Of a stretch of DNA of 64,000 nucleotides, positions 47,503-61,481 are shown piece after piece. The notes under the pieces were generated by a model. That model worked only from the letters and a program-made list of their open reading frames with translations. It was not told the DNA's origin and ran no database searches. Every line of letters starts with the position of its first letter. Positions within the stretch are counted from its first letter, which is position 1. A program made the position numbers and the translations under genes. The stretch covers positions 193,476 to 257,475 of the forward strand of contig MFGJ01000007.1 in NCBI GenBank assembly GCA_001778235.1. Direction: 5' to 3'. The DNA comes from Candidatus Falkowbacteria bacterium RIFOXYC2_FULL_36_12 (GTDB lineage: Bacteria > Patescibacteriota > Patescibacteriia > UBA11705).

Positions 47503-47513
47503 AAATTTGCATA

Positions 47514-47540
47514 GAAAAAACGCCGTGAGGCGTTTTTTTG
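47514..47540. terminator. Bidirectional intrinsic terminator AAAAAACGCCGUGAGGCGUUUUUUU between typA and msrA
   Basis: A hairpin flanked by an A-run and a T-run. Confidence 0.75.
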
Positions 47541-47569
47541 TTAGAATTTTTCTGACTCCATGGTTCGGG

Positions 47570-48106
47570 TTATTCTAAACTATCTCCAAACTGGGCTTCA
47601 ACTTTGCGGATTTTTGGTGCGATATTGAGAATACAGTATGGTTTAGTAGTATTGTTTTTGTAATAATTCTGATGATAATCTTCAGCTGGATAAAACTTTA
47701 TCAACCGCCTAACTTCAGTAACAATTTTTATTTCATCTTTTAGTTGTTTTGCCTCAATAAAATTTTCAGCTTGTTGTCTCTGATCATCTTCAGTCCAGAA
47801 AATTATTGAGTGATATTGGGGACCGGCATCGTGGCCTTGTTTGTCCATGGAAGTTGGGTCATGCATAGCAAAAAAGATTTCAAACAAATCTTTCAACTCT
47901 AAAATTTCTGGATTGTATTCAATTTTCACAACTTCAATATGACCGGTTTGGCCGGAGCTGACTTGCTGATAAGTCGGATTATCAATTTCACCGCCAGCAT
48001 AGCCAGGAGCAACAGACTCAACACCTTTTATCATTTGAAAAACTGCTTCAGTGCACCAGAAGCAACCTCCGCCAAGTATAATTGTTTTATTTTTCATAGG
48101 GTACAA
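47570..48106 (-). CDS. msrA: Peptide methionine sulfoxide reductase MsrA
   Basis: The GGGCFWC active site. Confidence 0.9.
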   Translation of the reverse strand: MYPMKNKTIILGGGCFWCTEAVFQMIKGVESVAPGYAGGEIDNPTYQQVSSGQTGHIEVVKIEYNPEILELKDLFEIFFAMHDPTSMDKQGHDAGPQYHSIIFWTEDDQRQQAENFIEAKQLKDEIKIVTEVRRLIKFYPAEDYHQNYYKNNTTKPYCILNIAPKIRKVEAQFGDSLE

Positions 48107-48452
48107 ATTTTATGGATAAGGAATTGACGCAATGACGAGTATTTTTTTCAGTGTAATGTTCATTTGTAAAAACATGCCCAAGATGAGCACCACAGTTAGC
48201 GCATTGAATTTCTGTTCTTTGTCCATCTGGGTCAGGCAGATGTTTGACTGCTCCCAAGATTTCCGCATCAAAGCTAGGCCAGCCACAATTGGTCTGGAAT
48301 TTGTGTTCGGATTTATATAGTTCAGCATTGCAACGACGACAGATGTATTTGCCTGTTTGGAAATGTTGATAATATTCACCAGAAAAAGCTGGTTCAGTGG
48401 CTTTGTTTTCTATAATGTTGGCTTCTTCGGGGGTGAGAGGGTTGTATTTCAT
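48087..48452 (-). CDS. msrB: Peptide methionine sulfoxide reductase MsrB
   Basis: Zn-binding CxxC pairs and the RCNAELY...GWPSF...HLGHVF motifs. It overlaps msrA by 20 nt. Confidence 0.9.
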   Translation of the reverse strand: MKYNPLTPEEANIIENKATEPAFSGEYYQHFQTGKYICRRCNAELYKSEHKFQTNCGWPSFDAEILGAVKHLPDPDGQRTEIQCANCGAHLGHVFTNEHYTEKNTRHCVNSLSIKFVPYEK

Positions 48453-48609
48453 ATAGTTAAATCATTATATATAATTGTAGCATGATTTAATAAAAACATT
48501 ATCTTTTCCCTAGTTCTAGCCAGTCATGTTGACAAATATCCTGATACATGATATCATATAGGTAGATAGAAGGTGCCAATCTCCCAACAGAACTCGAAAG
48601 GAGTTCCTC

Positions 48610-49281
48610 ATGGACATCAAGAAGCGCTTCGTTCTTTTCATCATGGTCTTCGCTGTCATGTCGCTGGCGGTCGCCTGCGACACGCCCAGCGGAGATCAGA
48701 ACAACGACACGGTCGCGGGCGCCGACAACGGCACCGTGCCCCCTGACACGGGCAAGACCGACAGCGGTCAGCCCGTGGATTCCAGCCCGCCCGATGACTC
48801 GGGTGGGGAGCTGTGCTCGGGAGAAGAGGAGCTCTACAGCTACGAGATCTGGGATGACCACGCTGGAGACAGGGGTCTCGGAGGGTTCGTCATGCTCGAC
48901 TACTGCGTCTCGCAGGAGCTGTACGAGCTCCTGACCGTGACGCTACCCGGAATCTGGGTTCAGACCGATCCCCCGCTCGACAGAATGGGTCGCGAGTGGG
49001 AGCCGTTCGAGCTCACGGTGAAGCCAGTCGAAGCTGACTTCGAACTGCGGGCCCAGGCTACCTGCCCGAACGCGGACTTCTACCTCGAAGGAGGTGATTT
49101 CAGTCTGTGTATTGAGGATGATATGAGCCTCAACCTCTGCACGGACAGGCAGGCTTGCCAAGGTGTTTTCAACGGCTATGTCGAAGCCGATACAGTACAG
49201 TTTTTCAAGTCAACTGAAATCTCTCTGACTTATGAATTTTGTACAAGTACATGTAACACTCGTTCATACAAGAAGCTGTAA
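48610..49281 (+). CDS. High-GC foreign lipoprotein (acidic, 8 Cys), hypothetical
   Basis: The signal and lipobox (LAVAC) are read directly. GC content jumps sharply at about 48595 and falls at about 49240. It has its own TTGACA-17-TATCAT promoter and an AAAGGAG Shine-Dalgarno, and a terminator at 49289-49325. Confidence 0.6.
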   Translation: MDIKKRFVLFIMVFAVMSLAVACDTPSGDQNNDTVAGADNGTVPPDTGKTDSGQPVDSSPPDDSGGELCSGEEELYSYEIWDDHAGDRGLGGFVMLDYCVSQELYELLTVTLPGIWVQTDPPLDRMGREWEPFELTVKPVEADFELRAQATCPNADFYLEGGDFSLCIEDDMSLNLCTDRQACQGVFNGYVEADTVQFFKSTEISLTYEFCTSTCNTRSYKKL

Positions 49282-49288
49282 ATATTAA

Positions 49289-49325
49289 AGTGTAATACTA
49301 AATTGTGTTATACTTTTTTTGTTTT
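49289..49325 (+). terminator. Intrinsic terminator (GUGUAAUAC/GUGUUAUAC stem with G-U pairs plus U-run)
   Basis: Read directly from the sequence. Confidence 0.5.
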
Positions 49326-49498
49326 GAAGATATATTACTTGTTTTGCCTGTTGGCTGTGCGAACAAGCGGACGAGGCGAACTAATCGTCCAGTGAATTGC
49401 TCCACAATTCTGGTATGCCGATAGCTAAATCATTAATTAAACTATTATACAACAAAAGCTGAATTTACAACTTTTGTTTTTTTATCTATAATTAAACT

Positions 49499-49936
49499 AT
49501 GCGAAATTTATTATCAAACGAATCAGATTCAAAAAAACTGCAAAGAGCATGGGACTTAGATCAGAAGGCTTTGTTTTTGGCAGACAAAGATATCCAAAAA
49601 AAACTTTGGTCAGAAGCTATAAATATCTGCAAAAAATTACTAAAAAAATATGGGAACAATTTTCCAGATAATTTACAAATAATATACAAAATATTTTTAA
49701 TTTATCTACATCAGAAAAAAATTTTACTCGCAAAAAGATATATTGATAAAGCCTGGAATTTAGATAAAAATAATCCCATAACACTATTTAACTACGGCAA
49801 TTTTTATAGGGCGATAAATAAACCCAAATTGGCAATAAAATATTACGAATCAGCATCAAAGAAAAGTAGTACTAAAATCTTTGGAGAAGAATTAAAAAAA
49901 TATCTAACTTTTATAAATAAAAACAAAAAAGGATAA
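49499..49936 (+). CDS. TPR-repeat protein, apparently leaderless (TTTACA-16-TATAAT ends 6 nt before the ATG)
   Basis: TPR-like helical repeats (AWNLDKNNPITLFNYGNFYRAINKPKLAIKYYE). Confidence 0.5.
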   Translation: MRNLLSNESDSKKLQRAWDLDQKALFLADKDIQKKLWSEAINICKKLLKKYGNNFPDNLQIIYKIFLIYLHQKKILLAKRYIDKAWNLDKNNPITLFNYGNFYRAINKPKLAIKYYESASKKSSTKIFGEELKKYLTFINKNKKG

Positions 49937-50144
49937 CACAACTTTGTATTATCCTTATCTTTTATGACATTTATTACAACTGCTTGTCGGATCCAGTAAA
50001 ATAACCCCTATTTGTACAATCTTCAAACCAAAGGTGATATTGGAAGACTTGGATAAGTTGAAATTACTTAATGAACAAGGTAACAACAATGTTGCATCAG
50101 ACAAGACTTTGTAGTGTTTCTTTTTTTCCTGGATTTGGCTCGCT

Positions 50145-51404
50145 TCATTGCGTTCCCCTTTCCTCTTGTCTAAGGGTGTGCCAGAAAATTGTTTTATACA
50201 TAAACTTCAGAACTTCACAGTAAGGATCTTTATTATCATCCATCAGTTGATATCTATCAATACATCCTCCGCAACATAACCAACCAAAATCACAAAGCCT
50301 ACAATCATCTTGCTTTTGATAATTAAATCTATTTACTGTATCAAATCTATTTTTTATCTCCGAGAGAGGTAGATGACCCACCTCCCCGAGTTTCATTTGA
50401 TGATTATCTACAAAATTTGTGCAAGGATAAATACCAGAAGGAGCAAGACAACAATTATTAATAGCAGCATTACAAGTATGCATCATATGTGGCTCTAACA
50501 CTGTCTGTTTAATTCTGTAAAATTCATTGAAAAATGCTTCTGGGACTTTTCCTTCACACCACAAATCTAGACACTTGCTAAAAACAGAAATCAATTCATC
50601 TTCTAATAAAACATATTTTTCCCAAAAATCACTAGCTCGCCCCCCTCTTTCCAGAAAAACAAAGTGTAGACCCAATAGATTATGCCTTAAACACCAATCT
50701 ATCATATCTTCAACTTCTTTAACATTATACCTTGTCAAAACCATACTTATCCTACATTCAATTCCACAATTCAACATTTCAATTATTTTCCTTTGAACAG
50801 CCGAACTGGCAACCCCTCTTAACATATAATTGACATCATCCTTCAACGAATCAAGTGATACCTGCAAGCTAACCTTATTATTTGCTAAAAATAGTAGTTG
50901 TTCATTGCTAAGGTTAACGAGACCATTCGTTAAAATCCCGAAATTCACTATTCCTCGTATTTTTGATTTTTCAATTATGTCTTGAACTACCCCCCACTCT
51001 AATAGTGGTTCTCCACCAGTAATTGTTATTGACTTAGTATCTTCTTTTGATAATTCGTCTAAAAACCAATCAATATTTTTTGGTGAAACAACTGGATAAT
51101 CAGAATTAGTACAACTATATCGACAATAACTACATTTTAGATTACATTTATTGCTTACATGGATTGATGCTCCTCTTATTGGAGTAGCATATTCGACTTC
51201 ACCATAAAGTGTATCCTGAACATCCTCTAAATAATCCAATATCTCTTCTATGGTTACATTTTCTTTTTTTGCTAAATTTGCTAAATCACTTTCGCGCTCT
51301 TGCCAAATTCTCAAACCTTGTTTATTTGTAAAGTACCAGACTCTTCTGATCGGATCTATAATAGCAACATCATCTTCTCTGAATAAATAAGTTAAATTCA
51401 CCAT
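50145..51404 (-). CDS. Radical SAM / SPASM-domain peptide-modifying enzyme with an N-terminal PqqD-like RRE
   Basis: The N-terminal 80 aa (YFTNKQGLRIWQ...EEILDYLEDV) resemble RRE/PqqD. The radical-SAM core has CNLKCSYC. The C-terminal Cys-rich SPASM is CNAAINNCC...C...CRLCDFGWLCCGGC. A strong Shine-Dalgarno AGAGGAGAAAAG is present. Confidence 0.8.
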   Translation of the reverse strand: MVNLTYLFREDDVAIIDPIRRVWYFTNKQGLRIWQERESDLANLAKKENVTIEEILDYLEDVQDTLYGEVEYATPIRGASIHVSNKCNLKCSYCRYSCTNSDYPVVSPKNIDWFLDELSKEDTKSITITGGEPLLEWGVVQDIIEKSKIRGIVNFGILTNGLVNLSNEQLLFLANNKVSLQVSLDSLKDDVNYMLRGVASSAVQRKIIEMLNCGIECRISMVLTRYNVKEVEDMIDWCLRHNLLGLHFVFLERGGRASDFWEKYVLLEDELISVFSKCLDLWCEGKVPEAFFNEFYRIKQTVLEPHMMHTCNAAINNCCLAPSGIYPCTNFVDNHQMKLGEVGHLPLSEIKNRFDTVNRFNYQKQDDCRLCDFGWLCCGGCIDRYQLMDDNKDPYCEVLKFMYKTIFWHTLRQEERGTQ

Positions 51405-51435
51405 CTTTTCTCCTCTTTTGCGGATTGGATGAATA

Positions 51436-52194
51436 TTATATAATATCTTTCAAGTACTGCATAAACGATTTTTTCTGTTGATGGGCATATTTTATCATAT
51501 ATAATAAATTCATAAATGATGCTAAACTTGACTCGGGTAGATAACAAATTTCTCTATCACCTATTTTTGTGAATCCTTTTTTATTTTTTTGTGGTGATAA
51601 TATTCCATACAATATTTCATTTTGTTGTTCAAATATTATTTCGTATATACATATATATTCTATACTGTTTTTTCTCAACCATTTAGATGCGTCAACAATT
51701 ATTTCATTCACAATTCTATTTATCTTTTTTGGCAGATAATTTTTGTCTAATTGGCACAGATGTTCCGATTCTGTCATTATTTTTTGGACTTTTTTTATTG
51801 GTGCTAATTTTTTCGGTCTAATTAATACCTGTAAACCATTTTTAAGGTATTTATTCATTTTCATTTCCAATTTATCAATATCATAATCTCCTACAATATC
51901 ACATCTAACAACAATAGGATATTCAACAAATGGAACTATTACCCACTCCAAAATTTCTATCTGTTTTTCATCAGACAAAATTTTGGCAATGTATTTTGAT
52001 ATTTTTCTATACTTCGTGTATATTTCTGTCATAAAAAAAGATACGAAAAGTATCCCATAAATTAAATAAACGAATTTTGATATTAATAGAAAGCTTGAGC
52101 ATATCTTCAATATTATATTATCTATTTGGGTATTTTTTGTCAAATGAAACTCCAACAGACTACGCTGATGGTATCTAACATTATTACCAGCCAA
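51436..52194 (-). CDS. Hypothetical protein co-transcribed upstream of the rSAM gene (start may be the internal Met at 52032)
   Basis: Its stop lies 31 nt before the rSAM start. A TTGACA-17-TAATAT promoter lies inside the 5' part of the ORF-track frame, suggesting the shorter version (about 198 aa from MTEIYTKYRK). Confidence 0.45.
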   Translation of the reverse strand: MAGNNVRYHQRSLLEFHLTKNTQIDNIILKICSSFLLISKFVYLIYGILFVSFFMTEIYTKYRKISKYIAKILSDEKQIEILEWVIVPFVEYPIVVRCDIVGDYDIDKLEMKMNKYLKNGLQVLIRPKKLAPIKKVQKIMTESEHLCQLDKNYLPKKINRIVNEIIVDASKWLRKNSIEYICIYEIIFEQQNEILYGILSPQKNKKGFTKIGDREICYLPESSLASFMNLLYMIKYAHQQKKSFMQYLKDII

Positions 52195-52222
52195 GCACCT
52201 CTTTTGGCATCTTGAAGCTTAA

Positions 52223-52414
52223 TTAATCTATTACGAATACCAACACGAAGCCAAAAGGATATAATATACCTTCCAGCTTACGCTGGTGGTTTTGCAAAGG
52301 CATACAGACAAAACAACCAATGAGAAGAGCGCTCCTTGATGAATTATTTAAACAATAGTAGGGAAATTTTATGTCCCTACTTTTTTGACTGCATAATTTT
52401 TCTATATTCTTCAA
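52223..52414 (-). CDS. Possible small Cys-rich peptide (63 aa, TTG start), candidate rSAM substrate; weak
   Basis: MKNIEKLCSQ...YYCLNN...IGCFVCMPLQ contains 4 Cys. No Shine-Dalgarno, a TTG start, and it overlaps the 3' end of the upstream gene. Confidence 0.2.
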   Translation of the reverse strand: MKNIEKLCSQKSRDIKFPYYCLNNSSRSALLIGCFVCMPLQNHQRKLEGILYPFGFVLVFVID

Positions 52415-52844
52415 ATGGGATTAAACCATATTTACTTCTTCGTTTATCTAGATTTTTTTGGTCAATAATTGGTCTGGGGACAACAATACCGAAGTCATCT
52501 TGATAAAATTGTGTACCAAATTTTTGTTTTTTCCCTTGGTTTATTAAAACACGATCAGTCAACATGGCTATTAAATTCTTTGGGGAATTATTTTCCGCCA
52601 TCAATTTCAAACATTTTTCTTGGAAAGAAACATCATGGTCAGCGTGTTGTGCGATTAGCCAGGTCGCTGTCTCGCCTTCAACGCCTACCAGTTTACGGAT
52701 AGGCCAGCCGTATTTAACTATAATCTTCTTTAATTTTTCTGTATTTTCTTTGTCAACAGCTATATCCCATTTTTTGCTCTGCCTCATTTTCTGATCTTTT
52801 GTTTGCATCCGCAGTAATTGTTTTCGGAGTTGTTGGTTCTGCAT
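52377..52844 (-). CDS. Hypothetical protein (155 aa), first gene of the rSAM operon, near-leaderless (TTGACT-16-TATAAT ends 8 nt before the ATG)
   Basis: Promoter at 52853-52880 on the minus strand. No family recognised. Confidence 0.5.
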   Translation of the reverse strand: MQNQQLRKQLLRMQTKDQKMRQSKKWDIAVDKENTEKLKKIIVKYGWPIRKLVGVEGETATWLIAQHADHDVSFQEKCLKLMAENNSPKNLIAMLTDRVLINQGKKQKFGTQFYQDDFGIVVPRPIIDQKNLDKRRSKYGLIPFEEYRKIMQSKK

Positions 52845-53021
52845 ATAATAGTATTATATACAAAAAGGTGTAATAGTCAAAAATTCTTTTTTTATAAATG
52901 ACTCTGCAAAAAACTTTTTTAAGGATGTAATGAATTAAATTCTCTGATGAATTTCATTCATAATGCTCAATCGAAAGAACGCATTCATAATGCGTTCTTT
53001 TTTATATAGAAACTTATTTTT

Positions 53022-56000
53022 TTACGGTTTTATTAAGATTCGTCCAGCAAAGCGGGTCCAAGGCTCTGGGGCTGTTCTTGAACATTCACCTTCATAACAT
53101 CCATCGGTGACCCAGGTAGATTTCTGATGGCCACATGATCCATTGCACCAACCCCAGCTGTCTTTAACCTGAACCTGCGGAATAAATTGGCAGGCTTGTT
53201 CGGTGGCATTCCAGCAATTTGAGATGACGCTACCACTACAGACCCGGTCACCCTGTCCCTCGCAGGTGTATCGATGTTCAAATTTGAAAAATTCTTGAGG
53301 ACTGCAGGCATCGGTTGTATCACCAAAAACATCATATTGAGTACCAAGACATGAAGTGCCGACAGGACAATCTGTTGTTTCGCGACAAGCATAATCTGGA
53401 ATATATTTTCCAGCATTATCAATTTTACAACGCTGGAGCAATTCACCGGCTAATTGCTGGCAAACTGGTTTGTGATTTTTCAATTTACCTTCATCCAAGC
53501 CAACGACTGTGCTACCATCATTCCAATCAACCAGAACTGAAGTTATTGGCATTTGATTGGAGTTGGCCCAAGCATAGAATGTCATCTGGGCAGAATAATC
53601 CTCGCCTGAATAACGAATATCGCCTCGAGATTGAGTACCAATACTGATGGTATTAATATCAGCGGCTGAAGTTTCATTGCCAGTAATCGGATCAGAATTA
53701 CCGGTAAAGACAACTCCGGCAACAATTGGAGGCTGATGTGAATTGGTTAAGGCAAAATCACCAGCGACTGGCATAGAACCAGCAAGATTCACATATTTAT
53801 CATTTTGATATATCCATCGATTATAAACATTGGCAAATAAATTGTTGATGAAGACACTATAGCCTGATGACTTGGTAACATTGTCGCAATTGGCTGTTTC
53901 TCCACCTTCACAACTGATTGGCTTACCGGCTGTATGGGCATTGTTGCCTAAGCCAGCGAAAAATGGTGTACCACCTGGATTTTCAGCTAGATCAGTGCCA
54001 TCATCATTGGTTGAGTCAAATGGGACATAGACAGGATCACCTTCATCTGTACTAACAGCAGAACCATAGGCACTACCAAATGGGTTTAAGGCAGTAGTTG
54101 GAGACAAGCCGTATTCAAGAGATCTGGTAGTCGCGTCCCACAATTTATCATGGGTTGCTCCAGACTCTAGTACAAGGTTATCCCCAGTCTTTAAATATTT
54201 ATAGAAATTGTCAGTATAAGCTTTGTTACTACCAAGAGCATCTTCTTCTACAACCTGAATAACATCCTGACAATATTCACCTTTTAATAAATCAAGGGTA
54301 AAATCCTGCCAACCAATACTGTTGGAATCATCGCAGATAGAAGCCCAGACACCTTTGAACTGATCATTTTCATCAAACAGCACTCTAACACCGAAATAAT
54401 TATCCTCACCCCAACAATGACTGTTTATCTGCCGAGCACTTTGAGCTAATGTATTATAGTTACAATAACCAACTTGGCTCTGGTCTGACTGACAGTACCA
54501 AATAGTTTCTCCCTCAACTTGTTGGTTGGCATTATTGTTGCAAGGGAATTGAGCTGGGTTTAGGTCATAATCTGTAGCTGGATTACACTGAACATTGGAA
54601 CAGTAGTTACCATAATAACTGTCCTTAATACATTTTCCATTGCCACAATCATTATCTTCGGTACAGCCTTGTGATGACCAATTTACACCATGCAAGACAC
54701 CTGCTGGAATAGGCTTAAAAACATCTTCTGCATCACCAAGAACTTCATTGGTAATCAAATCTTTATTTTCTACTCCTCCATCCTTGACAAACATGAGATA
54801 TTTATCATCATCAAATTCACCAAGTTTCTTGCCACTGCCACCATATTGATAGAGGGTGTCACTCTCAAGGAATCGGCTGGAGACAAAATCTTTTTCAGAC
54901 CAAGTAATCTGCCAATAAGTCCATTGACGATATTTGTCTTGATCACGAGTGAAATTGTAAGTCGAGAGATTGCCTGTGACCAAAGTATTTGGAGCTGAAC
55001 CACTTGGATTAATAGACCGAGCTGATTTTTTGAAGAAATTGTAACCTTGAAAGTCTTGGCTGTGACTTTTTTCATACCAGGTTGTAGCTGATTCACCTTC
55101 GCACCAATCTTCGTCTTGACCTTCATTGCAAGCAAAAGAAAAGCCTATTAAATCTTGTTTATAAAGAGGTTCACCACTATAACCAGTGAAATATTCGCGA
55201 TAATCATTGCCACCTGAAGGGATATAATAACGATAATCATCAAAAATCCTGGCTCGATAGGAAATCGGATCTTCGTACGGTGTATCATCTGTTTCTAATC
55301 CGGCTGCACCGAGACAGTATAAACGACCACCATCATTTTCAAAAGCATTTGGATCATAACCAGCTTCATCATACTGGGCATATAGATCCTGAAGACCGGA
55401 CAATGAATCAACAGGATACCAGGACAAACAAGCGGTGTCGCCCTGCCCACTAAGTTTGAGACTGCCATCTCGTTCAAGACAATATCCCTGCATGCCAAGA
55501 TATTTTACCCGATCAATATCCTTCTTCATACACATACCGAGCTGTCCACTGTCACTGCAGTCATATGATTCGCACATTGTACTTCGATCAATAGCATTTC
55601 TGGTAATGTTGTCATCCTCTGTAATCAGACCAGCGCAAGCACATTGCCTATCTGGAATATCCTGACAAAAGCCGACTTTGTCAGTTTCAATATATTGGCT
55701 GATTGAATTTGGAAAATATTTGTCTATATATCCGCCACCAAAACTAACCTTGGTATAAGCACAACCGCAGGCAAAATTTTCATCGCCTTCGCAGGTCAGA
55801 ACATTTTCATAGGCTTGGGCAGTTTGATTGCCTAACTTTTTAACACTGGCATTGAATGGAGAGTCTGCCTGCGGATAAGCTCGGCATTCAGCAGAACTGG
55901 CGCTGATAATATCAGCGGTAGCAACTCCTTCAACGCAAACATCACCAAGACAGCGACGGCCAGCTCCGCAGGCGTCATCTGAAGTACATGTTTGACTAGT

Positions 56001-59000
56001 AAGATGAACCAGACGATAGTCTTTTGGTAGAGCATTGTCACGAGCATTTATATTGTAGGAATTATAAAATTGTAGTGGATATCTATTTGAAATAGAATAA
56101 CCACTGTAATCAAGCTGTCCCCATGAAACTCCCTGCGTTCGGCGGACTTGAGTATAATTGGTTGCATTTAATAATTGATTGGTTGTAAGGAGTGAATCTG
56201 ATGGACCCTCACTGACAAAATGACTACATTGACCAGTATTCTCTGCCTCACCAATAGCATCACAAAGGCCAAGTCCCTGACAGACGAATTTCGAAGTGTT
56301 GGTAACTGGATCAAAAACAGTTTGTCCGCTCTTGCAGTCATACCATTCTGCACATTCGCGATCACGGACAACTTTTATTATACGATTTGAATCCTGAAAA
56401 ATATTAGCTTCATTGGCAGCGTAACACAAGACAGACTCATAAGTACATTGATTAACTCCGACTGGGCCAGCACTGGCACTCGGGGTTGTCCCGAGCAGTG
56501 CGAAAACGCTATTTGTAATTGCAGTTCTTTCTACGGAATTAGTGTCTGGTTGGTTAAAAATAGCTCTGACCTCTGGGCAATAATTTGTGTGCAGAGAGCA
56601 ATCAATATTTAAATTTTCTAGTAGTAATTTCAAACCTTGGAGTGCCTGATCAGTGGAATTGGCAAGAGGAGAAACACCTCGACCACCATCAGCAGAACTG
56701 GCTTCATAGGTTGAAGCAGAATTAAACAAAAGCTGATTAAATCCTTGGGCATTTTTGACAGAAGTGTCATTGAATAATAGACAGCCATCTTTTTCACTAA
56801 CAGTAGAGCAAGACTGGATGTCTTCATTGTTTAAATAATAATAAGCTGAACCTTTGGTTGAGCCACCTTCAACATCAACTGGATCAAGAAAAGCAGTACA
56901 TGAATCATATTTACTCTTGCATTGACCAACCCAGCCATCATAGGTGGCAGTACTTGAATGCAATAAATGACCCGTGCCATCAGCGTAATAATCAAAAGTT
57001 CCAGACGGACAAGAATCTTCAGTGCCTGTGACGAACCAACCTTCATTGCCGTCAGAACCTACCTTGTATTCACAAGTGCGTTCACCCGGCTCCTTGAAAT
57101 AATAAGTGTTGTTGTCAGAAGTAGTAAATTCATCACAGCGATTATCTCTGCCGAGGCATAAGTATTTATCAAGATTATCAAAATCTAATTTGAAAAAGTT
57201 AGTAGCCCAATTATCAGACTCTATTTGATTGTTCTGATCATAATTTGGGACGCCGAGCATGGTACAACCAATACCAAATACTTTACACCTAACATCATCA
57301 GATAGGACTAAGTACATCAAATTGTCTTGATCGGTTGTAAAGGCTCCATTGTCATTATCATAAGATTGACTAAATGGGTTAGTCGAATTTTGGGTATCAA
57401 TAACTGCTTGACAGCCAACTGCTGACTGACGGCAAATATTGCGAAAACCTCGAAGTGTCTGACTGCCGGCAACACTACTTTCAAATTCACGACAACCAAG
57501 CTGGGCTTGTGGCAAATATTGTTTGGACAAGGTCTGATCGCAAGCTGTCGGAGTTGACCAACTATTAGTAATCAAATAATGTGTATCGCTAAGTCTCTTG
57601 ACTTCAATACTATCAAAATAAATCGTGCCACTATTTGATTGGATATTTATTTCATTAACCGCTTCGGTTGGAACAAATATGGCTGTATCATAATGTAAAA
57701 ATTGTGTCTGATCAGCCGGAGTTGACTGGATTTCCACCCTTGACTCAAGGCTTGAGCTACCAAGATTAATATCAGCTCGGGCAGTTGAACCAGGGCTCTC
57801 TGCCCAGAAGGAAACAATATATGATTCACCTGGAATAAGGGAGTTTGATAATCTACGACCGGAGGTTTGGCCAGAAGTGAGCTTCAATGATTTTCCGCCA
57901 TTGATTGAAGACCGTTGACTGATTTCTCCTCCAGTCCAGATTGTACTGGCATCAAAAGTGTCATTTAACAATTGGTCAACATCATTGGCTGTATTACCGC
58001 GGTATTCACGACAGCCAGCATTTGATTTATCACATGACTTGCTAAAATCAGGGTTAGCCCAGAAAACACACTCATTGTCAGCTCGCCATTCACCACCTCG
58101 ACTAGTGCATTGGATCTCTGCATCATATTTAAGTGTTCGGCGGTATGGATGACAATTTTGGCTACATAAAACTAAATTATCTAAAATATAATATGAAACA
58201 TTGCCATTTTTATCATAAAGTTCACGGCATTCAGGAAAATTTATTGGGTCAAAAGTTGACGGACTACATTCACGAGTTATAGGCGACTTCTGGACGACTT
58301 TTGGTACAGAATTATTCATCTCAAACTGATGTGCCTGGAGTTGATAACCAGAAACATCGGTTCCGACCCAAGTATAATAAGTGCCACAACTTGTATCGGT
58401 TTCAGGATTGTCTGATTTTTTGCAAAGTCTAAGATCAGAATAATATTCAGTTCCTTCACCACCTGCATCTAAATCATCTAAATTGGTAAATTCTTCACAA
58501 CTGACTTGATTAGCTGAACAGCTTTCAGCAGTTGATGGCATGAAATATAATGGGAACTGGGTTGAAACAAAATTTGTAGAGGCCTGGGAATAAGTCGCAT
58601 ACCCAACACACTGTGAAGGACAGAGATCTTCTGGTGAAGCAACAGCGGTAACGCTGGTGCCACCATCGGTTGGATTGAAGAGCTGACAGCCAACTTCTTC
58701 AGCGGCACAAAGCTCGGCAAAGTCAGAACATTTTTCTGAATTATTACTTGTTTTATCAAGAATATCTGAAACATTAACTGGGGTATACCAAGTTGTTTCA
58801 CCTTGTCTTATCCCACGACTAAAGGCTGGATCAGTATATAAAGCTGAATCATAACAGCCATAATAATCAGGAGCAATTTTGATAAAATCCAAACCAATAG
58901 TCCCATAATCACTGTAATCATAAACTTCAAATGGACTGACTGCTTCTGAAATTTGGACTTCATCAATGACTGAACTCTCAATGCCTGAAAAACGCATTCC

Positions 59001-61481
59001 AAGATAAGCAACATCTGGAGCTAGACGAACAATCTTGTTGATTCTCTGCCAACCGCCACCCAAATCCTCAATTTGAGTGGTATAAATATAAGAATCATTT
59101 AATGGATTTAAATTTTCTGTGGTTGAAGTAAAGGTAACATCAAAAGTTCCACCCATTCTCCGCATAGAGTAGTTTAACCTAGCAACTGTTGGAATGAGTT
59201 CAACAACTTGACTACCAGAAACAACGGCAGAAAATAAATAATAACGAGAGTATTTCAATGGAGTAATTTGTAAATCTTGAGTGAGATACAATTGACCTGA
59301 AGCTCCAAGTGATACAGAATTTGAACTTTGATAACCTGTATCTGTAACAATAAAATTATCAGCTTCAGAATTGTTCCACCCAGTAATCATATCAGCGGTT
59401 GTATCATTGGCCTCACCAACAAAAAGATCAAAATTACTATTTGGAACCAAGTTAGCACCAAAACGATTGCTAGTATTTATTACCCTAGTACAACCTTCAT
59501 CATTTGGTGAACAACTTTCAGTTTCAATCTGACTGTTCAAGTGGACAATTGAACTACCTGTTTTGTAATAATCTGCGGGATAGTTTTCAGCCCAAACCCG
59601 ATCTGTGGCAGTAGAAGAAGTCAACCAGCTACTATACCCTAGACAACCAACTGAATTAGCATCACAGCTACCAAAATCTACTGTATTTAATAAATAATTA
59701 AATTTTTTACCGTCACGCTGGGTCAGAGTAGTACAAGAATCAGCGACTGCAGGACAAATATCGCCAGTAAATTTCCAAACATTTTCTTCAGCGGCACAAT
59801 AAGCATAATGGCAATTGCCCTCCTCATCAGTGGCAACACAACTTTTTACATCAGCACAATATTCAGCTCGATCTGTAGTATTTGAGGCAAGTAGAGTTGG
59901 TCCGCTGGCAACAGCATCACAACGAGCTTTGGGATATTTGAGAACCCAATCAGGGTCAACTAAATAACGATAAGGATCACAACTGGTAACTGCGGCAGGA
60001 GCATTGAAACAGCCAAGCATAAAACTCAATGTCTTGGCAGGATCGCCATTGGCGGAAACTGCTTGAGCTGCGAGCTCCCAACCAATTGGAATAATTCTGG
60101 CTTTTCGCAATTTTACAAGATTGTAATAACAATAACCATTTAAGTAACAATCATCATCTAAATTGTCTGAATTTTGTGGGCTGATAAAGGCTAAATTGGG
60201 AATTAATTGTTGATTTAGCGCTTCTTGAACGGTTAACGGAGTACCATAATTTGCAGTGCGGACAGCATCAGCAAAATCTTCGGTTATAACACAATTATTT
60301 GGACCTCGATTGATTGTACCAGGATCACAAGTGGTAAACTCTGTGAGCTGGTCAATTTCTCGGGAAGAAGTTTTAAACCCAATTTTTTTTAAGCGAGAAA
60401 TCTGATTCTCGGCTACAGTTTTGTAATCAAAAACACCTTGTGATGGATTGTAAGAATTGGAGACATAGCCTTGGGATATACGGTCAAACAAAGCATTGAC
60501 AAATCGTTGAGAAACAAATGAATTCAAAAAGGTTGAACCAATTGCTTCTGGAATTGATTCAATAACATTCCAAGCTTTTTCTTCTTCAGATGCAGGAGCG
60601 TCTAGGGTTTTCGAAATTTGACTTGATAATAATTCTTTTGAAACATCTGGCGGATTTTGGATGGTTGTTCCTGTAATATCGGTTTTGGGTTTGAAACTTC
60701 CCTCGCCTTCAAGTCGTTCTTCTTTGGCTACCTGCTCTTGTTCTCTCTGGGCAGATTCAGCTAAATCATAAGTATATAAATAAGTACCAATATCACTTTG
60801 TTTTGGTTCAAAACCTTTGACAACTTGTTCTATTGCCACAAAAGAAGCAACTGACGGATTGTCAACATATTTACTCTGTAATTCATCGGCAAAAGCGCTC
60901 CAGCGATCCTTTACTTTGTTCCAAGAACAACGACGATTTTGGACTTGAGCATCAAATGGGTTGCGTTTGGTATTGACCTCAAGAGAACGAATTACTCTAA
61001 GTTTTACATCCAAACTTGGTTCGCAGATGTCAAACTTGTCAGCCCATGGTTGAGCTGTACTCAATTCACTCAAAACATCGGTCAAAACAGCTTCACGAAC
61101 ACGGTCAACATAAGTGCTCCAAGTATCAAGTTGCCAAACAGGTTGTTGACCCCACTCGCCTGTTTCAAGCCAATTAACACTCTGCTCGGCCAAATCCTGC
61201 GCAACTGTAACGGCTAAATTTTTTAAATTTATGGCGGCTGTACGGATCAGAACTTTTTCAATCTTATCTCCAATCGTCTCTTCAAGCTTATTTGTTTTTT
61301 CCGTTATTATACGGTCAGTCTCAATGGCAATATCAACTGAAGTACCTGCAGGGTCAATTACCGGCAATTCAGCAAAGGCAGTTTTGGGTGGAACTATTAT
61401 ATTGGCAAAAATCAGAAAAACAATAACAACCAATAATGTAAATAAAGGTTTAATGTAGCGACAATTTTGAACTTTTTTCAT
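53022..61481 (-). CDS. Giant secreted or surface protein (2819 aa), Cys/Gly/Asn/Ser/Thr-rich with an N-terminal signal anchor
   Basis: An uninterrupted 8.46 kb ORF. N-terminus MKKVQNCRYIKPLFTLLVVIVFLIFANIIVPP. It holds more than 100 Cys, including a recurring module C-T-[SE]-D-[DN]-x-C-G-x-G-[RK]-C. Confidence 0.8.
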   Translation of the reverse strand: MKKVQNCRYIKPLFTLLVVIVFLIFANIIVPPKTAFAELPVIDPAGTSVDIAIETDRIITEKTNKLEETIGDKIEKVLIRTAAINLKNLAVTVAQDLAEQSVNWLETGEWGQQPVWQLDTWSTYVDRVREAVLTDVLSELSTAQPWADKFDICEPSLDVKLRVIRSLEVNTKRNPFDAQVQNRRCSWNKVKDRWSAFADELQSKYVDNPSVASFVAIEQVVKGFEPKQSDIGTYLYTYDLAESAQREQEQVAKEERLEGEGSFKPKTDITGTTIQNPPDVSKELLSSQISKTLDAPASEEEKAWNVIESIPEAIGSTFLNSFVSQRFVNALFDRISQGYVSNSYNPSQGVFDYKTVAENQISRLKKIGFKTSSREIDQLTEFTTCDPGTINRGPNNCVITEDFADAVRTANYGTPLTVQEALNQQLIPNLAFISPQNSDNLDDDCYLNGYCYYNLVKLRKARIIPIGWELAAQAVSANGDPAKTLSFMLGCFNAPAAVTSCDPYRYLVDPDWVLKYPKARCDAVASGPTLLASNTTDRAEYCADVKSCVATDEEGNCHYAYCAAEENVWKFTGDICPAVADSCTTLTQRDGKKFNYLLNTVDFGSCDANSVGCLGYSSWLTSSTATDRVWAENYPADYYKTGSSIVHLNSQIETESCSPNDEGCTRVINTSNRFGANLVPNSNFDLFVGEANDTTADMITGWNNSEADNFIVTDTGYQSSNSVSLGASGQLYLTQDLQITPLKYSRYYLFSAVVSGSQVVELIPTVARLNYSMRRMGGTFDVTFTSTTENLNPLNDSYIYTTQIEDLGGGWQRINKIVRLAPDVAYLGMRFSGIESSVIDEVQISEAVSPFEVYDYSDYGTIGLDFIKIAPDYYGCYDSALYTDPAFSRGIRQGETTWYTPVNVSDILDKTSNNSEKCSDFAELCAAEEVGCQLFNPTDGGTSVTAVASPEDLCPSQCVGYATYSQASTNFVSTQFPLYFMPSTAESCSANQVSCEEFTNLDDLDAGGEGTEYYSDLRLCKKSDNPETDTSCGTYYTWVGTDVSGYQLQAHQFEMNNSVPKVVQKSPITRECSPSTFDPINFPECRELYDKNGNVSYYILDNLVLCSQNCHPYRRTLKYDAEIQCTSRGGEWRADNECVFWANPDFSKSCDKSNAGCREYRGNTANDVDQLLNDTFDASTIWTGGEISQRSSINGGKSLKLTSGQTSGRRLSNSLIPGESYIVSFWAESPGSTARADINLGSSSLESRVEIQSTPADQTQFLHYDTAIFVPTEAVNEINIQSNSGTIYFDSIEVKRLSDTHYLITNSWSTPTACDQTLSKQYLPQAQLGCREFESSVAGSQTLRGFRNICRQSAVGCQAVIDTQNSTNPFSQSYDNDNGAFTTDQDNLMYLVLSDDVRCKVFGIGCTMLGVPNYDQNNQIESDNWATNFFKLDFDNLDKYLCLGRDNRCDEFTTSDNNTYYFKEPGERTCEYKVGSDGNEGWFVTGTEDSCPSGTFDYYADGTGHLLHSSTATYDGWVGQCKSKYDSCTAFLDPVDVEGGSTKGSAYYYLNNEDIQSCSTVSEKDGCLLFNDTSVKNAQGFNQLLFNSASTYEASSADGGRGVSPLANSTDQALQGLKLLLENLNIDCSLHTNYCPEVRAIFNQPDTNSVERTAITNSVFALLGTTPSASAGPVGVNQCTYESVLCYAANEANIFQDSNRIIKVVRDRECAEWYDCKSGQTVFDPVTNTSKFVCQGLGLCDAIGEAENTGQCSHFVSEGPSDSLLTTNQLLNATNYTQVRRTQGVSWGQLDYSGYSISNRYPLQFYNSYNINARDNALPKDYRLVHLTSQTCTSDDACGAGRRCLGDVCVEGVATADIISASSAECRAYPQADSPFNASVKKLGNQTAQAYENVLTCEGDENFACGCAYTKVSFGGGYIDKYFPNSISQYIETDKVGFCQDIPDRQCACAGLITEDDNITRNAIDRSTMCESYDCSDSGQLGMCMKKDIDRVKYLGMQGYCLERDGSLKLSGQGDTACLSWYPVDSLSGLQDLYAQYDEAGYDPNAFENDGGRLYCLGAAGLETDDTPYEDPISYRARIFDDYRYYIPSGGNDYREYFTGYSGEPLYKQDLIGFSFACNEGQDEDWCEGESATTWYEKSHSQDFQGYNFFKKSARSINPSGSAPNTLVTGNLSTYNFTRDQDKYRQWTYWQITWSEKDFVSSRFLESDTLYQYGGSGKKLGEFDDDKYLMFVKDGGVENKDLITNEVLGDAEDVFKPIPAGVLHGVNWSSQGCTEDNDCGNGKCIKDSYYGNYCSNVQCNPATDYDLNPAQFPCNNNANQQVEGETIWYCQSDQSQVGYCNYNTLAQSARQINSHCWGEDNYFGVRVLFDENDQFKGVWASICDDSNSIGWQDFTLDLLKGEYCQDVIQVVEEDALGSNKAYTDNFYKYLKTGDNLVLESGATHDKLWDATTRSLEYGLSPTTALNPFGSAYGSAVSTDEGDPVYVPFDSTNDDGTDLAENPGGTPFFAGLGNNAHTAGKPISCEGGETANCDNVTKSSGYSVFINNLFANVYNRWIYQNDKYVNLAGSMPVAGDFALTNSHQPPIVAGVVFTGNSDPITGNETSAADINTISIGTQSRGDIRYSGEDYSAQMTFYAWANSNQMPITSVLVDWNDGSTVVGLDEGKLKNHKPVCQQLAGELLQRCKIDNAGKYIPDYACRETTDCPVGTSCLGTQYDVFGDTTDACSPQEFFKFEHRYTCEGQGDRVCSGSVISNCWNATEQACQFIPQVQVKDSWGWCNGSCGHQKSTWVTDGCYEGECSRTAPEPWTRFAGRILIKP

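Follow-up and report, generated by a model that had tools for sequence, protein, structure and literature searches.

The GC-rich island and its open reading frame

The stretch analysed here, referred to as the window, consists of 64 kb (64,000 nucleotides) from Candidatus Falkowbacteria bacterium RIFOXYC2_FULL_36_12 (contig MFGJ01000007.1, positions 193,476 to 257,475 of the forward strand). It derives from an AT-rich groundwater genome and contains a small, sharply bounded island of GC-rich DNA that carries an open reading frame (ORF) of 223 codons plus stop at 48610–49281 on the plus strand, whose product is predicted to be an acidic lipoprotein rich in Cys. The region around the island, which starts at the bipA stop codon, appears specific to this lineage. 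Over the interval 47503–53000 it is a mosaic with respect to GC content: msrAB shows 0.37–0.42, the island 0.62, a TPR gene 0.26, a radical SAM gene 0.34 and an ORF without a family 0.26.

A two-change-point maximum-likelihood fit places the core of the island at 48645–49189 (545 bp, GC 0.622). The window has a mean GC of 0.359, with a standard deviation (sd) of 0.041 among 500-bp windows, and the highest 500-bp window outside the island reaches 0.454. Intergenic DNA upstream, before position 48560, has a GC of 0.17–0.27. It is followed by a 5′ shoulder at 48560–48649 (plus strand; GC approximately 0.45), which comprises the 5′ untranslated region and the first 13 codons, and values of 0.57–0.80 are found across 48650–49189. 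Over the final 92 nt of the ORF GC drops to 0.30–0.40, and immediately beyond the ORF it is 0.17. An earlier note on this DNA described a sharp rise to over 60% GC for about 650 bp, ending near the stop codon. The sharp rise is evident, but the measured length is approximately 545–630 bp, and the fall occurs 92 nt before the stop codon instead.

The compositional test for a horizontally transferred gene gives a GC of 0.62 for the island versus 0.36, and a third-position GC (GC3) of 0.78 versus 0.28 ± 0.03 in the native ORFs of the window (n = 27), i.e. approximately 17 sd above native genes. Codons 1–193 display GC1/GC2/GC3 values of 0.63/0.41/0.78. When taken in blocks of 15 codons, GC3 is 0.67–0.93 in every block up to about codon 180 and then 0.33–0.47; codons 194–223 have a GC3 of 0.33. 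It is therefore codon usage that is anomalous, and amino acid composition does not account for this. The foreign, unameliorated composition proposed in the earlier note is thus found. Codons in the 5′ shoulder are already foreign-like, with a GC3 of 0.80 from codon 1, and therefore the foreign DNA probably begins just after the −10 box of the upstream promoter-like site, at about position 48560.

Three-base periodicity is strong and uniform along the island (chi-square = 54, p = 2e-12). By the Muto-Osawa relation, GC3 varies with genomic GC, and the GC1/2/3 pattern of the island is as expected for a gene whose genome has about 60–65% GC. Together with a Shine-Dalgarno sequence and a signal peptide with a lipobox, the periodicity supports a true protein-coding gene whose evolution took place at this genomic GC content.

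The predicted lipoprotein

The ORF product corresponds to the GenBank hypothetical proteins OGF31603.1, OGF34627.1 and OGF31851.1. It is identical, save for the annotator-chosen start codon, in three RIFOXY Candidatus Falkowbacteria genomes and one ENA assembly.

A signal peptide with a lipobox (MDIKKRFVLFIMVFAVMSLAVA, then C23) is predicted at 48610–48678 (plus strand) by a PROSITE-type rule. The N-terminal sequence agrees with the PS51257-type rule: K, K and R are found within the first 7 residues (MDIKKRF...), followed by VFAVMSLAVAC, and the VFAVMS stretch before the lipobox contains no D, E, R or K. The lipobox pattern [LIVMFWSTAG]2-[LIVMFYSTAGCQ]-[AGS]-C, with the Cys at 15–35, is matched by L-A-V-A-C with Cys23, as the earlier note had read it. 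The window contains only two ORFs with a length of 80 aa or more that pass this rule, one of them the island ORF. The eight Cys and many Asp/Glu of that note are also present: there are nine Cys, eight of these beyond the lipobox Cys23, and the whole protein has 40 D+E versus 14 K+R with a computed pI of about 4.

The signal peptide is followed by a 45-residue acidic linker (residues 24–68, positions 48679–48813, plus strand) that is rich in Asp, Gly, Pro, Ser and Thr and is predicted to be disordered. The linker is the GC-richest and most hairpin-rich stretch of the island, and it contains the sole polymorphism found, a non-synonymous C/A at 48739 (Pro44/Thr44). Residues 69–193 (48814–49188, plus strand) are the foreign-composition part of a Cys-rich acidic domain, with 6 Cys and 26 D+E versus 6 K+R. 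The tail, residues 194–223 plus stop (49189–49281, plus strand), has native composition (GC 0.33, GC3 0.33); it is basic, rich in Lys, Phe, Thr and Ser, and contains 2 Cys. Codon usage and amino acid composition change together at approximately 49189. The 3′ compositional border thus falls within the ORF, and from its composition the 223 aa reading frame appears to be a foreign/native mosaic, i.e. a fusion. The chance of 30 stop-free codons in DNA of the local native composition is P ~0.08, and the remaining two frames past 49189 close at 8 and 12 codons. No internal repeat of the protein, and no paralogue, is found in the window.

A 120 aa ORF is also present on the minus strand at 48499–48861. 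Its codon position 1 coincides with position 3 of the sense frame and it has no homologue. It was rejected as a gene and is regarded, as first suggested, as a shadow of the GC-rich sense frame.

Expression signals

A sigma-70-like site, TTGACA-17 nt-TATCAT with an extended −10 TG, is found at 48529–48557 (plus strand) and matches the consensus at 11 of 12 positions. The site lies in intergenic DNA, AT-rich and of native type, that the ORF shares with the divergently oriented msrB, and its consensus match makes it a candidate promoter. The Shine-Dalgarno AAGGAG is at 48598–48603, 6 nt 5′ of the ATG. It is located in the loop and 3′ arm of a perfect 6-bp hairpin, GAACTC-GAAAG-GAGTTC (48590–48606, plus strand), which appears in both the minimum free energy (MFE) and centroid folds. 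The hairpin might have a regulatory role.

On the 3′ side, an intrinsic terminator is found at 49287–49326 (plus strand). It consists of a 12-bp A/U-rich hairpin (49287–49298 / 49305–49316) followed by TTTTGTTTTG. The hairpin has a z of −4.15, and none of 200 shuffles was as stable. A consensus terminator scan downstream of the island gene gave no match, because the hairpin contains just 2 G-C pairs. The next gene is also followed by a hairpin of similar kind, at 49925–49951, and the terminator is therefore of the host type. The ORF thus has its own Shine-Dalgarno sequence between an AT-rich promoter and a T-run hairpin like the neighbouring native one, an arrangement that the earlier note had pointed out.

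Between this terminator and the next promoter there is an 85 nt patch of about 50% GC (49340–49425) in intergenic DNA of 17–20% GC. The patch gives a predicted branched fold with a z of only −1.4 and is without a Rfam match. It may be a leftover of foreign DNA or a small RNA.

Presence of the island in independent assemblies

Exact-protein look-ups for the island ORF and both flanking genes gave 28 loci, with further similar places listed (that is, at least 28), from IDBA scaffolds and from SPAdes, MEGAHIT and Logan assemblies of many samples. Each of the 28 is colinear with the window (99.9+% identity), and both island borders are spanned at this identity by 12 or more distinct contigs, which come from different samples and were built by different assemblers. 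Neither a junction without the island nor an alternative junction is present in any contig examined (22–23 contigs per flanking gene). The population is near-clonal (RIFOXY* Candidatus Falkowbacteria genomes) and shows one single-nucleotide polymorphism (SNP), the C/A at 48739.

Several assemblies break within the island, at 48627–48837, and one scaffold has an N-gap at 48973–49176. In four of the samples the contigs from the two sides meet at distances of −6 to +13 nt, and they match the window to their ends. Low coverage where GC and hairpins are most abundant, combined with the SNP, apparently accounts for these breaks. The island is real DNA; an assembly chimera, which the earlier note had left as an alternative, is rejected, since the junctions recur in independent assemblies of many samples.

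Predicted folding of the island

The island core at 48652–49188 has a predicted MFE of −245 kcal/mol. This is more stable than expected under each null model, with z values of −3.78 (dinucleotide shuffle, plus strand), −3.95 (dinucleotide shuffle, minus strand), −3.65 (codon-order shuffle), −3.51 (codon-position shuffle) and −3.64 (synonymous shuffle, which keeps both protein and codon usage; 0 of 150 as stable). Control coding segments of 537 nt, drawn from loci of 57–68% GC (n = 44), gave a mean z of −0.24, an sd of 0.86 and a minimum of −2.81. A z of −8.1 for the whole transcript was discarded as inflated by compositional heterogeneity, and the homogeneous core was re-tested with the stricter null models in its place.

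The folding excess is strongest at 48640–48880 and there is none in the native tail. It is equal on both strands and therefore looks like a property at the DNA level. Two candidate causes, a long inverted duplication and an excess of perfect 7–8 bp inverted repeats, were looked for and not found. The excess plausibly accounts for the recurrent contig breaks.

Searches for homologues and for a donor

A word-indexed search of the protein against 5.8 billion clusters found only itself, and an exhaustive phmmer search against 1.84 billion representatives found itself and one spurious match. The latter is a fish Ig-repeat protein, which was rejected as a homologue: its score is inflated by repeats and the pairwise BLASTP E-value is 0.6. 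The five alternative reading frames, concatenated, gave no match. There was also no match in plasmids (blastn, tblastn), phages (tblastn), IMG/VR or JGI metagenome contigs, or in Pfam, NCBIfam, PHROGs, PADLOC and PDB sequence searches with the island protein. Since no collection yields a homologue, the donor cannot be named. Of the recent acquisition from a high-GC donor put forward earlier, the foreign composition is therefore seen, but BLASTP-type searches have not provided a donor lineage.

The genomic setting

The nearest relatives by BipA are 88% (a CG10-series Falkowbacteria genome; an ENA contig) and 84% identical. In these relatives gene order is kept upstream and through bipA, similarity is lost at the bipA stop codon, and the island gene is absent, a patchy distribution. 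In one of them, an rve-family integrase (transposase) gene is situated a few kb beyond the 3′ end of bipA.

The msrA-msrB pair (47570–48452, minus strand) has a native-like GC3 and is without a close relative. The best matches to MsrB are 60–70% identical and come from Dehalococcoidia, SAR202 and Verrucomicrobiota (GTDB genomes, JGI metagenomes), which suggests that the pair is an older transfer.

A 15-nt direct repeat, ATAGYTAAATCATTA (14/15 identical), at 48453–48467 and 49421–49435, brackets the promoter, gene and terminator unit. It is not beyond chance in AT-rich DNA (blastn-short E = 1.8–3.5).

Origin of the island

Candidate Phyla Radiation (CPR) bacteria gain genes by horizontal transfer (PMC7427843). 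The observations above are probably best explained by the recent capture of a truncated foreign gene, which became a predicted surface lipoprotein. A coding fragment from an organism of about 60–65% GC would have been inserted recently into one population of Falkowbacteria, which belong to the CPR, at a gene-flux hotspot just downstream of bipA-msrAB. The foreign piece, approximately 48560–49189, would have brought the Shine-Dalgarno sequence, the signal peptide with its lipobox, the acidic disordered linker and most of the Cys-rich acidic domain. The gene appears to have been truncated at its 3′ end on insertion, such that the frame now continues for 30 codons in native AT-rich DNA before a stop is reached. 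Read-through is the simplest reading of the 3′ mosaic; alternatively, an earlier native gene may have been replaced in part. The captured gene would then use a native-type promoter and hairpin terminator.

The product would be exported by Sec, receive a diacylglyceryl group at Cys23 and be cleaved by signal peptidase II, so that the mature protein starts at the lipidated Cys23. The lipid may anchor it on the outer face of the cell membrane, where the 45-residue acidic tether would carry a globular domain; this domain would have about 155 residues and 8 Cys, enough for four disulfides at most. As far as can be judged from sequence features, the protein probably acts at the cell surface, binding a ligand, a cation or a partner cell.

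Several results weigh against the capture of a foreign gene in this form. The searches, which covered six frames, could show neither a donor homologue nor phylogenetic incongruence. With MsrB as the anchor, GTDB genomes and JGI metagenomes yielded no empty site, the best MsrB hits being only 60–70% identical, and the insertion borders and the fusion are therefore placed by composition alone. The usual marks of integration are also missing: there is no tRNA in the 64-kb window, neighbouring genes show no integrase or mobility domain, and flanking direct or inverted repeats are no better than chance. One non-synonymous SNP, the only one present, gives no evidence of selection on the protein. Single-sequence AlphaFold2 yields a pLDDT of 37 for the full protein and 34 for the mature domain, too low for a fold search. 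Finally, the excess of predicted secondary structure is not explained by capture.

The principal alternative, which is unlikely, is that the island is recent passenger DNA which is not yet functional and whose reading frame is intact only through its youth; the predicted lipoprotein would then not be produced, or would be of no use to the cell. The unameliorated composition is consistent with this, as are the confinement of the gene to one near-clonal population, the non-synonymous nature of the only polymorphism and the Shine-Dalgarno sequence partly sequestered in a hairpin. The 3′ end also appears to be an accidental read-through that chance could supply (P ~0.08). However, the foreign piece is situated precisely behind a near-consensus promoter and ahead of a terminator, and the island is present in every contig that reaches the locus, with no variant lacking it in the contigs of either flanking gene.

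A further possibility, which is rather improbable, is that the island represents a fresh DNA transfer from a high-GC partner or host of episymbiotic Falkowbacteria. In this case the gene would also have been captured as a surface lipoprotein, under the control of a native promoter, with the hairpin-rich sequence itself being maintained, e.g. for mRNA stability or regulation. If so, the island would offer a way, through sequence, to the organism with which an uncultured CPR lineage is physically associated.

In AT-rich genomes, a GC-rich island is often the sign of a structured RNA, and GC-island screens for structured RNA genes in such genomes were reportedly carried out by Klein, Misulovin and Eddy in 2002. 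The island resembles GC-rich structured RNA genes in being a discrete unit with its own promoter and terminator and an unusually stable predicted fold, which lies beyond all 44 high-GC controls (z about −3.5 to −3.95); it also has no protein homologue. A structured non-coding RNA gene in which the long ORF is fortuitous is nevertheless very improbable. Unlike such genes, the island shows codon periodicity, strong and uniform over its whole length, and at its 5′ end a Shine-Dalgarno sequence, an ATG and a signal peptide and lipobox that agree with the rule. A Rfam search of 48000–50000 gave only noise even at E <= 10 (E-values of about 2–10), and the whole window gave no match at gathering thresholds. 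The structure excess is also symmetric between the strands, as for a property of the DNA and not of one transcript. The folding excess is the main argument for an RNA gene and is outweighed by the coding evidence.

It is highly improbable that the island is a long-resident native gene in which GC has been raised or maintained locally, through selection on nucleic-acid structure or through biased mutation such as that of a diversity-generating retroelement. The self-complementarity is indeed unusual even when protein sequence and codon usage are controlled for, and the donor has not been found. However, no relative has an orthologue, and amino acid composition and codon choice switch together at 49189. 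In addition, there is no template repeat or reverse transcriptase nearby, and a comparable rise in GC occurs nowhere else in the window or in the contigs of the relatives.

The protein might also be the substrate of a SPASM maturase that forms Cys-to-Asp/Glu thioether cross-links before export, although this is barely plausible and no more than a weak lead. A radical SAM/SPASM maturase-like gene is found at 50145–51404 (minus strand), 864 nt downstream of the island ORF, with DynA and PapB as its top matches in NCBIfam. C-x3-[D/E] motifs hold four of the eight Cys that follow the lipobox Cys (shuffle P = 0.047), an excess that is only marginal. The family scores of the maturase-like gene (about 93 bits) are far under the cut-offs of 340–450. 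The gene is native in composition and lies on the opposite strand, with the TPR gene between it and the island ORF. In contrast to ranthipeptide/QhpC-like precursors, the island product has 223 aa and a Sec/lipobox export signal and is not a short leader-plus-core peptide.

That high-GC reads of another organism were joined into a Falkowbacteria contig, as the very sharp compositional borders and the breaks and N-gap within the island could suggest, is scarcely credible: both junctions are reproduced across samples by four assembly pipelines, the broken contigs of the two sides abut colinearly with the window and none runs into other DNA, the ORF is in frame across both borders with the Shine-Dalgarno sequence and start codon correctly placed behind the promoter, and low coverage where GC and hairpins are densest, in addition to the 48739 SNP, is consistent with the breaks.

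Comparison with known systems

In the amelioration framework of Lawrence and Ochman, acquired ORFan genes and genomic islets are recognised by atypical composition. The island gene is similar to these in its sharply atypical GC and GC3, its absence from the closest relatives, its lack of detectable homologues and its position in a variable region beside conserved genes. There are also differences. Bacterial orphans are usually more AT-rich than the host, whereas the island gene is far more GC-rich. The island consists of a single gene fragment and not of several genes as in a genomic island, and mobility genes, tRNA and flanking repeats are absent. In addition, its 3′ border is inside the ORF, which would produce a foreign/native fusion.

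With bacterial lipoproteins (Lgt/LspA substrates, PS51257) the product shares a positive n-region, a hydrophobic h-region and a lipobox that ends in Cys23. The predicted layout, a flexible linker followed by a globular domain, is the usual one for surface-anchored lipoproteins of single-membrane bacteria. The island protein differs in having Ala at −3 and Leu at −4, and its mature domain fits no known family.

Horizontal gene capture is an ordinary kind of event, and the island is an unusually clean case. Taken alone, the gene is a strain-specific orphan coding for a predicted lipoprotein. Its interest lies in a clean, well-delimited capture in a reduced CPR genome, in which a truncated foreign fragment appears fused in frame and provided with native expression signals. 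As the island also demonstrates, a sharp GC island in a metagenome-assembled genome is not necessarily a chimera, and it can lead to recurrent contig breaks. Should further islands of the same signature that do have homologues exist in this genome, they could point to the donor and possibly to the organism with which these bacteria live.

Neighbouring genes

The maturase-like gene at 50145–51404 has no obvious precursor gene, and the ORF upstream of it (51436–52194, minus strand) matches no family. The locus is an orphan maturase locus. The ORF at 51436–52194 and the small TPR protein ORF at 49499–49936 (plus strand) both have a GC of approximately 0.26, clearly below the 0.36 of the window; their deviation is thus opposite to that of the island.

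A very large ORF, 2819 aa in length, is found at 53022–61481 (minus strand), with a GC of 0.40–0.44 and only a weak match to a carbohydrate-binding module. The ORF that comes after it contains a bacterial TSP3 repeat. These two ORFs probably encode large surface proteins.

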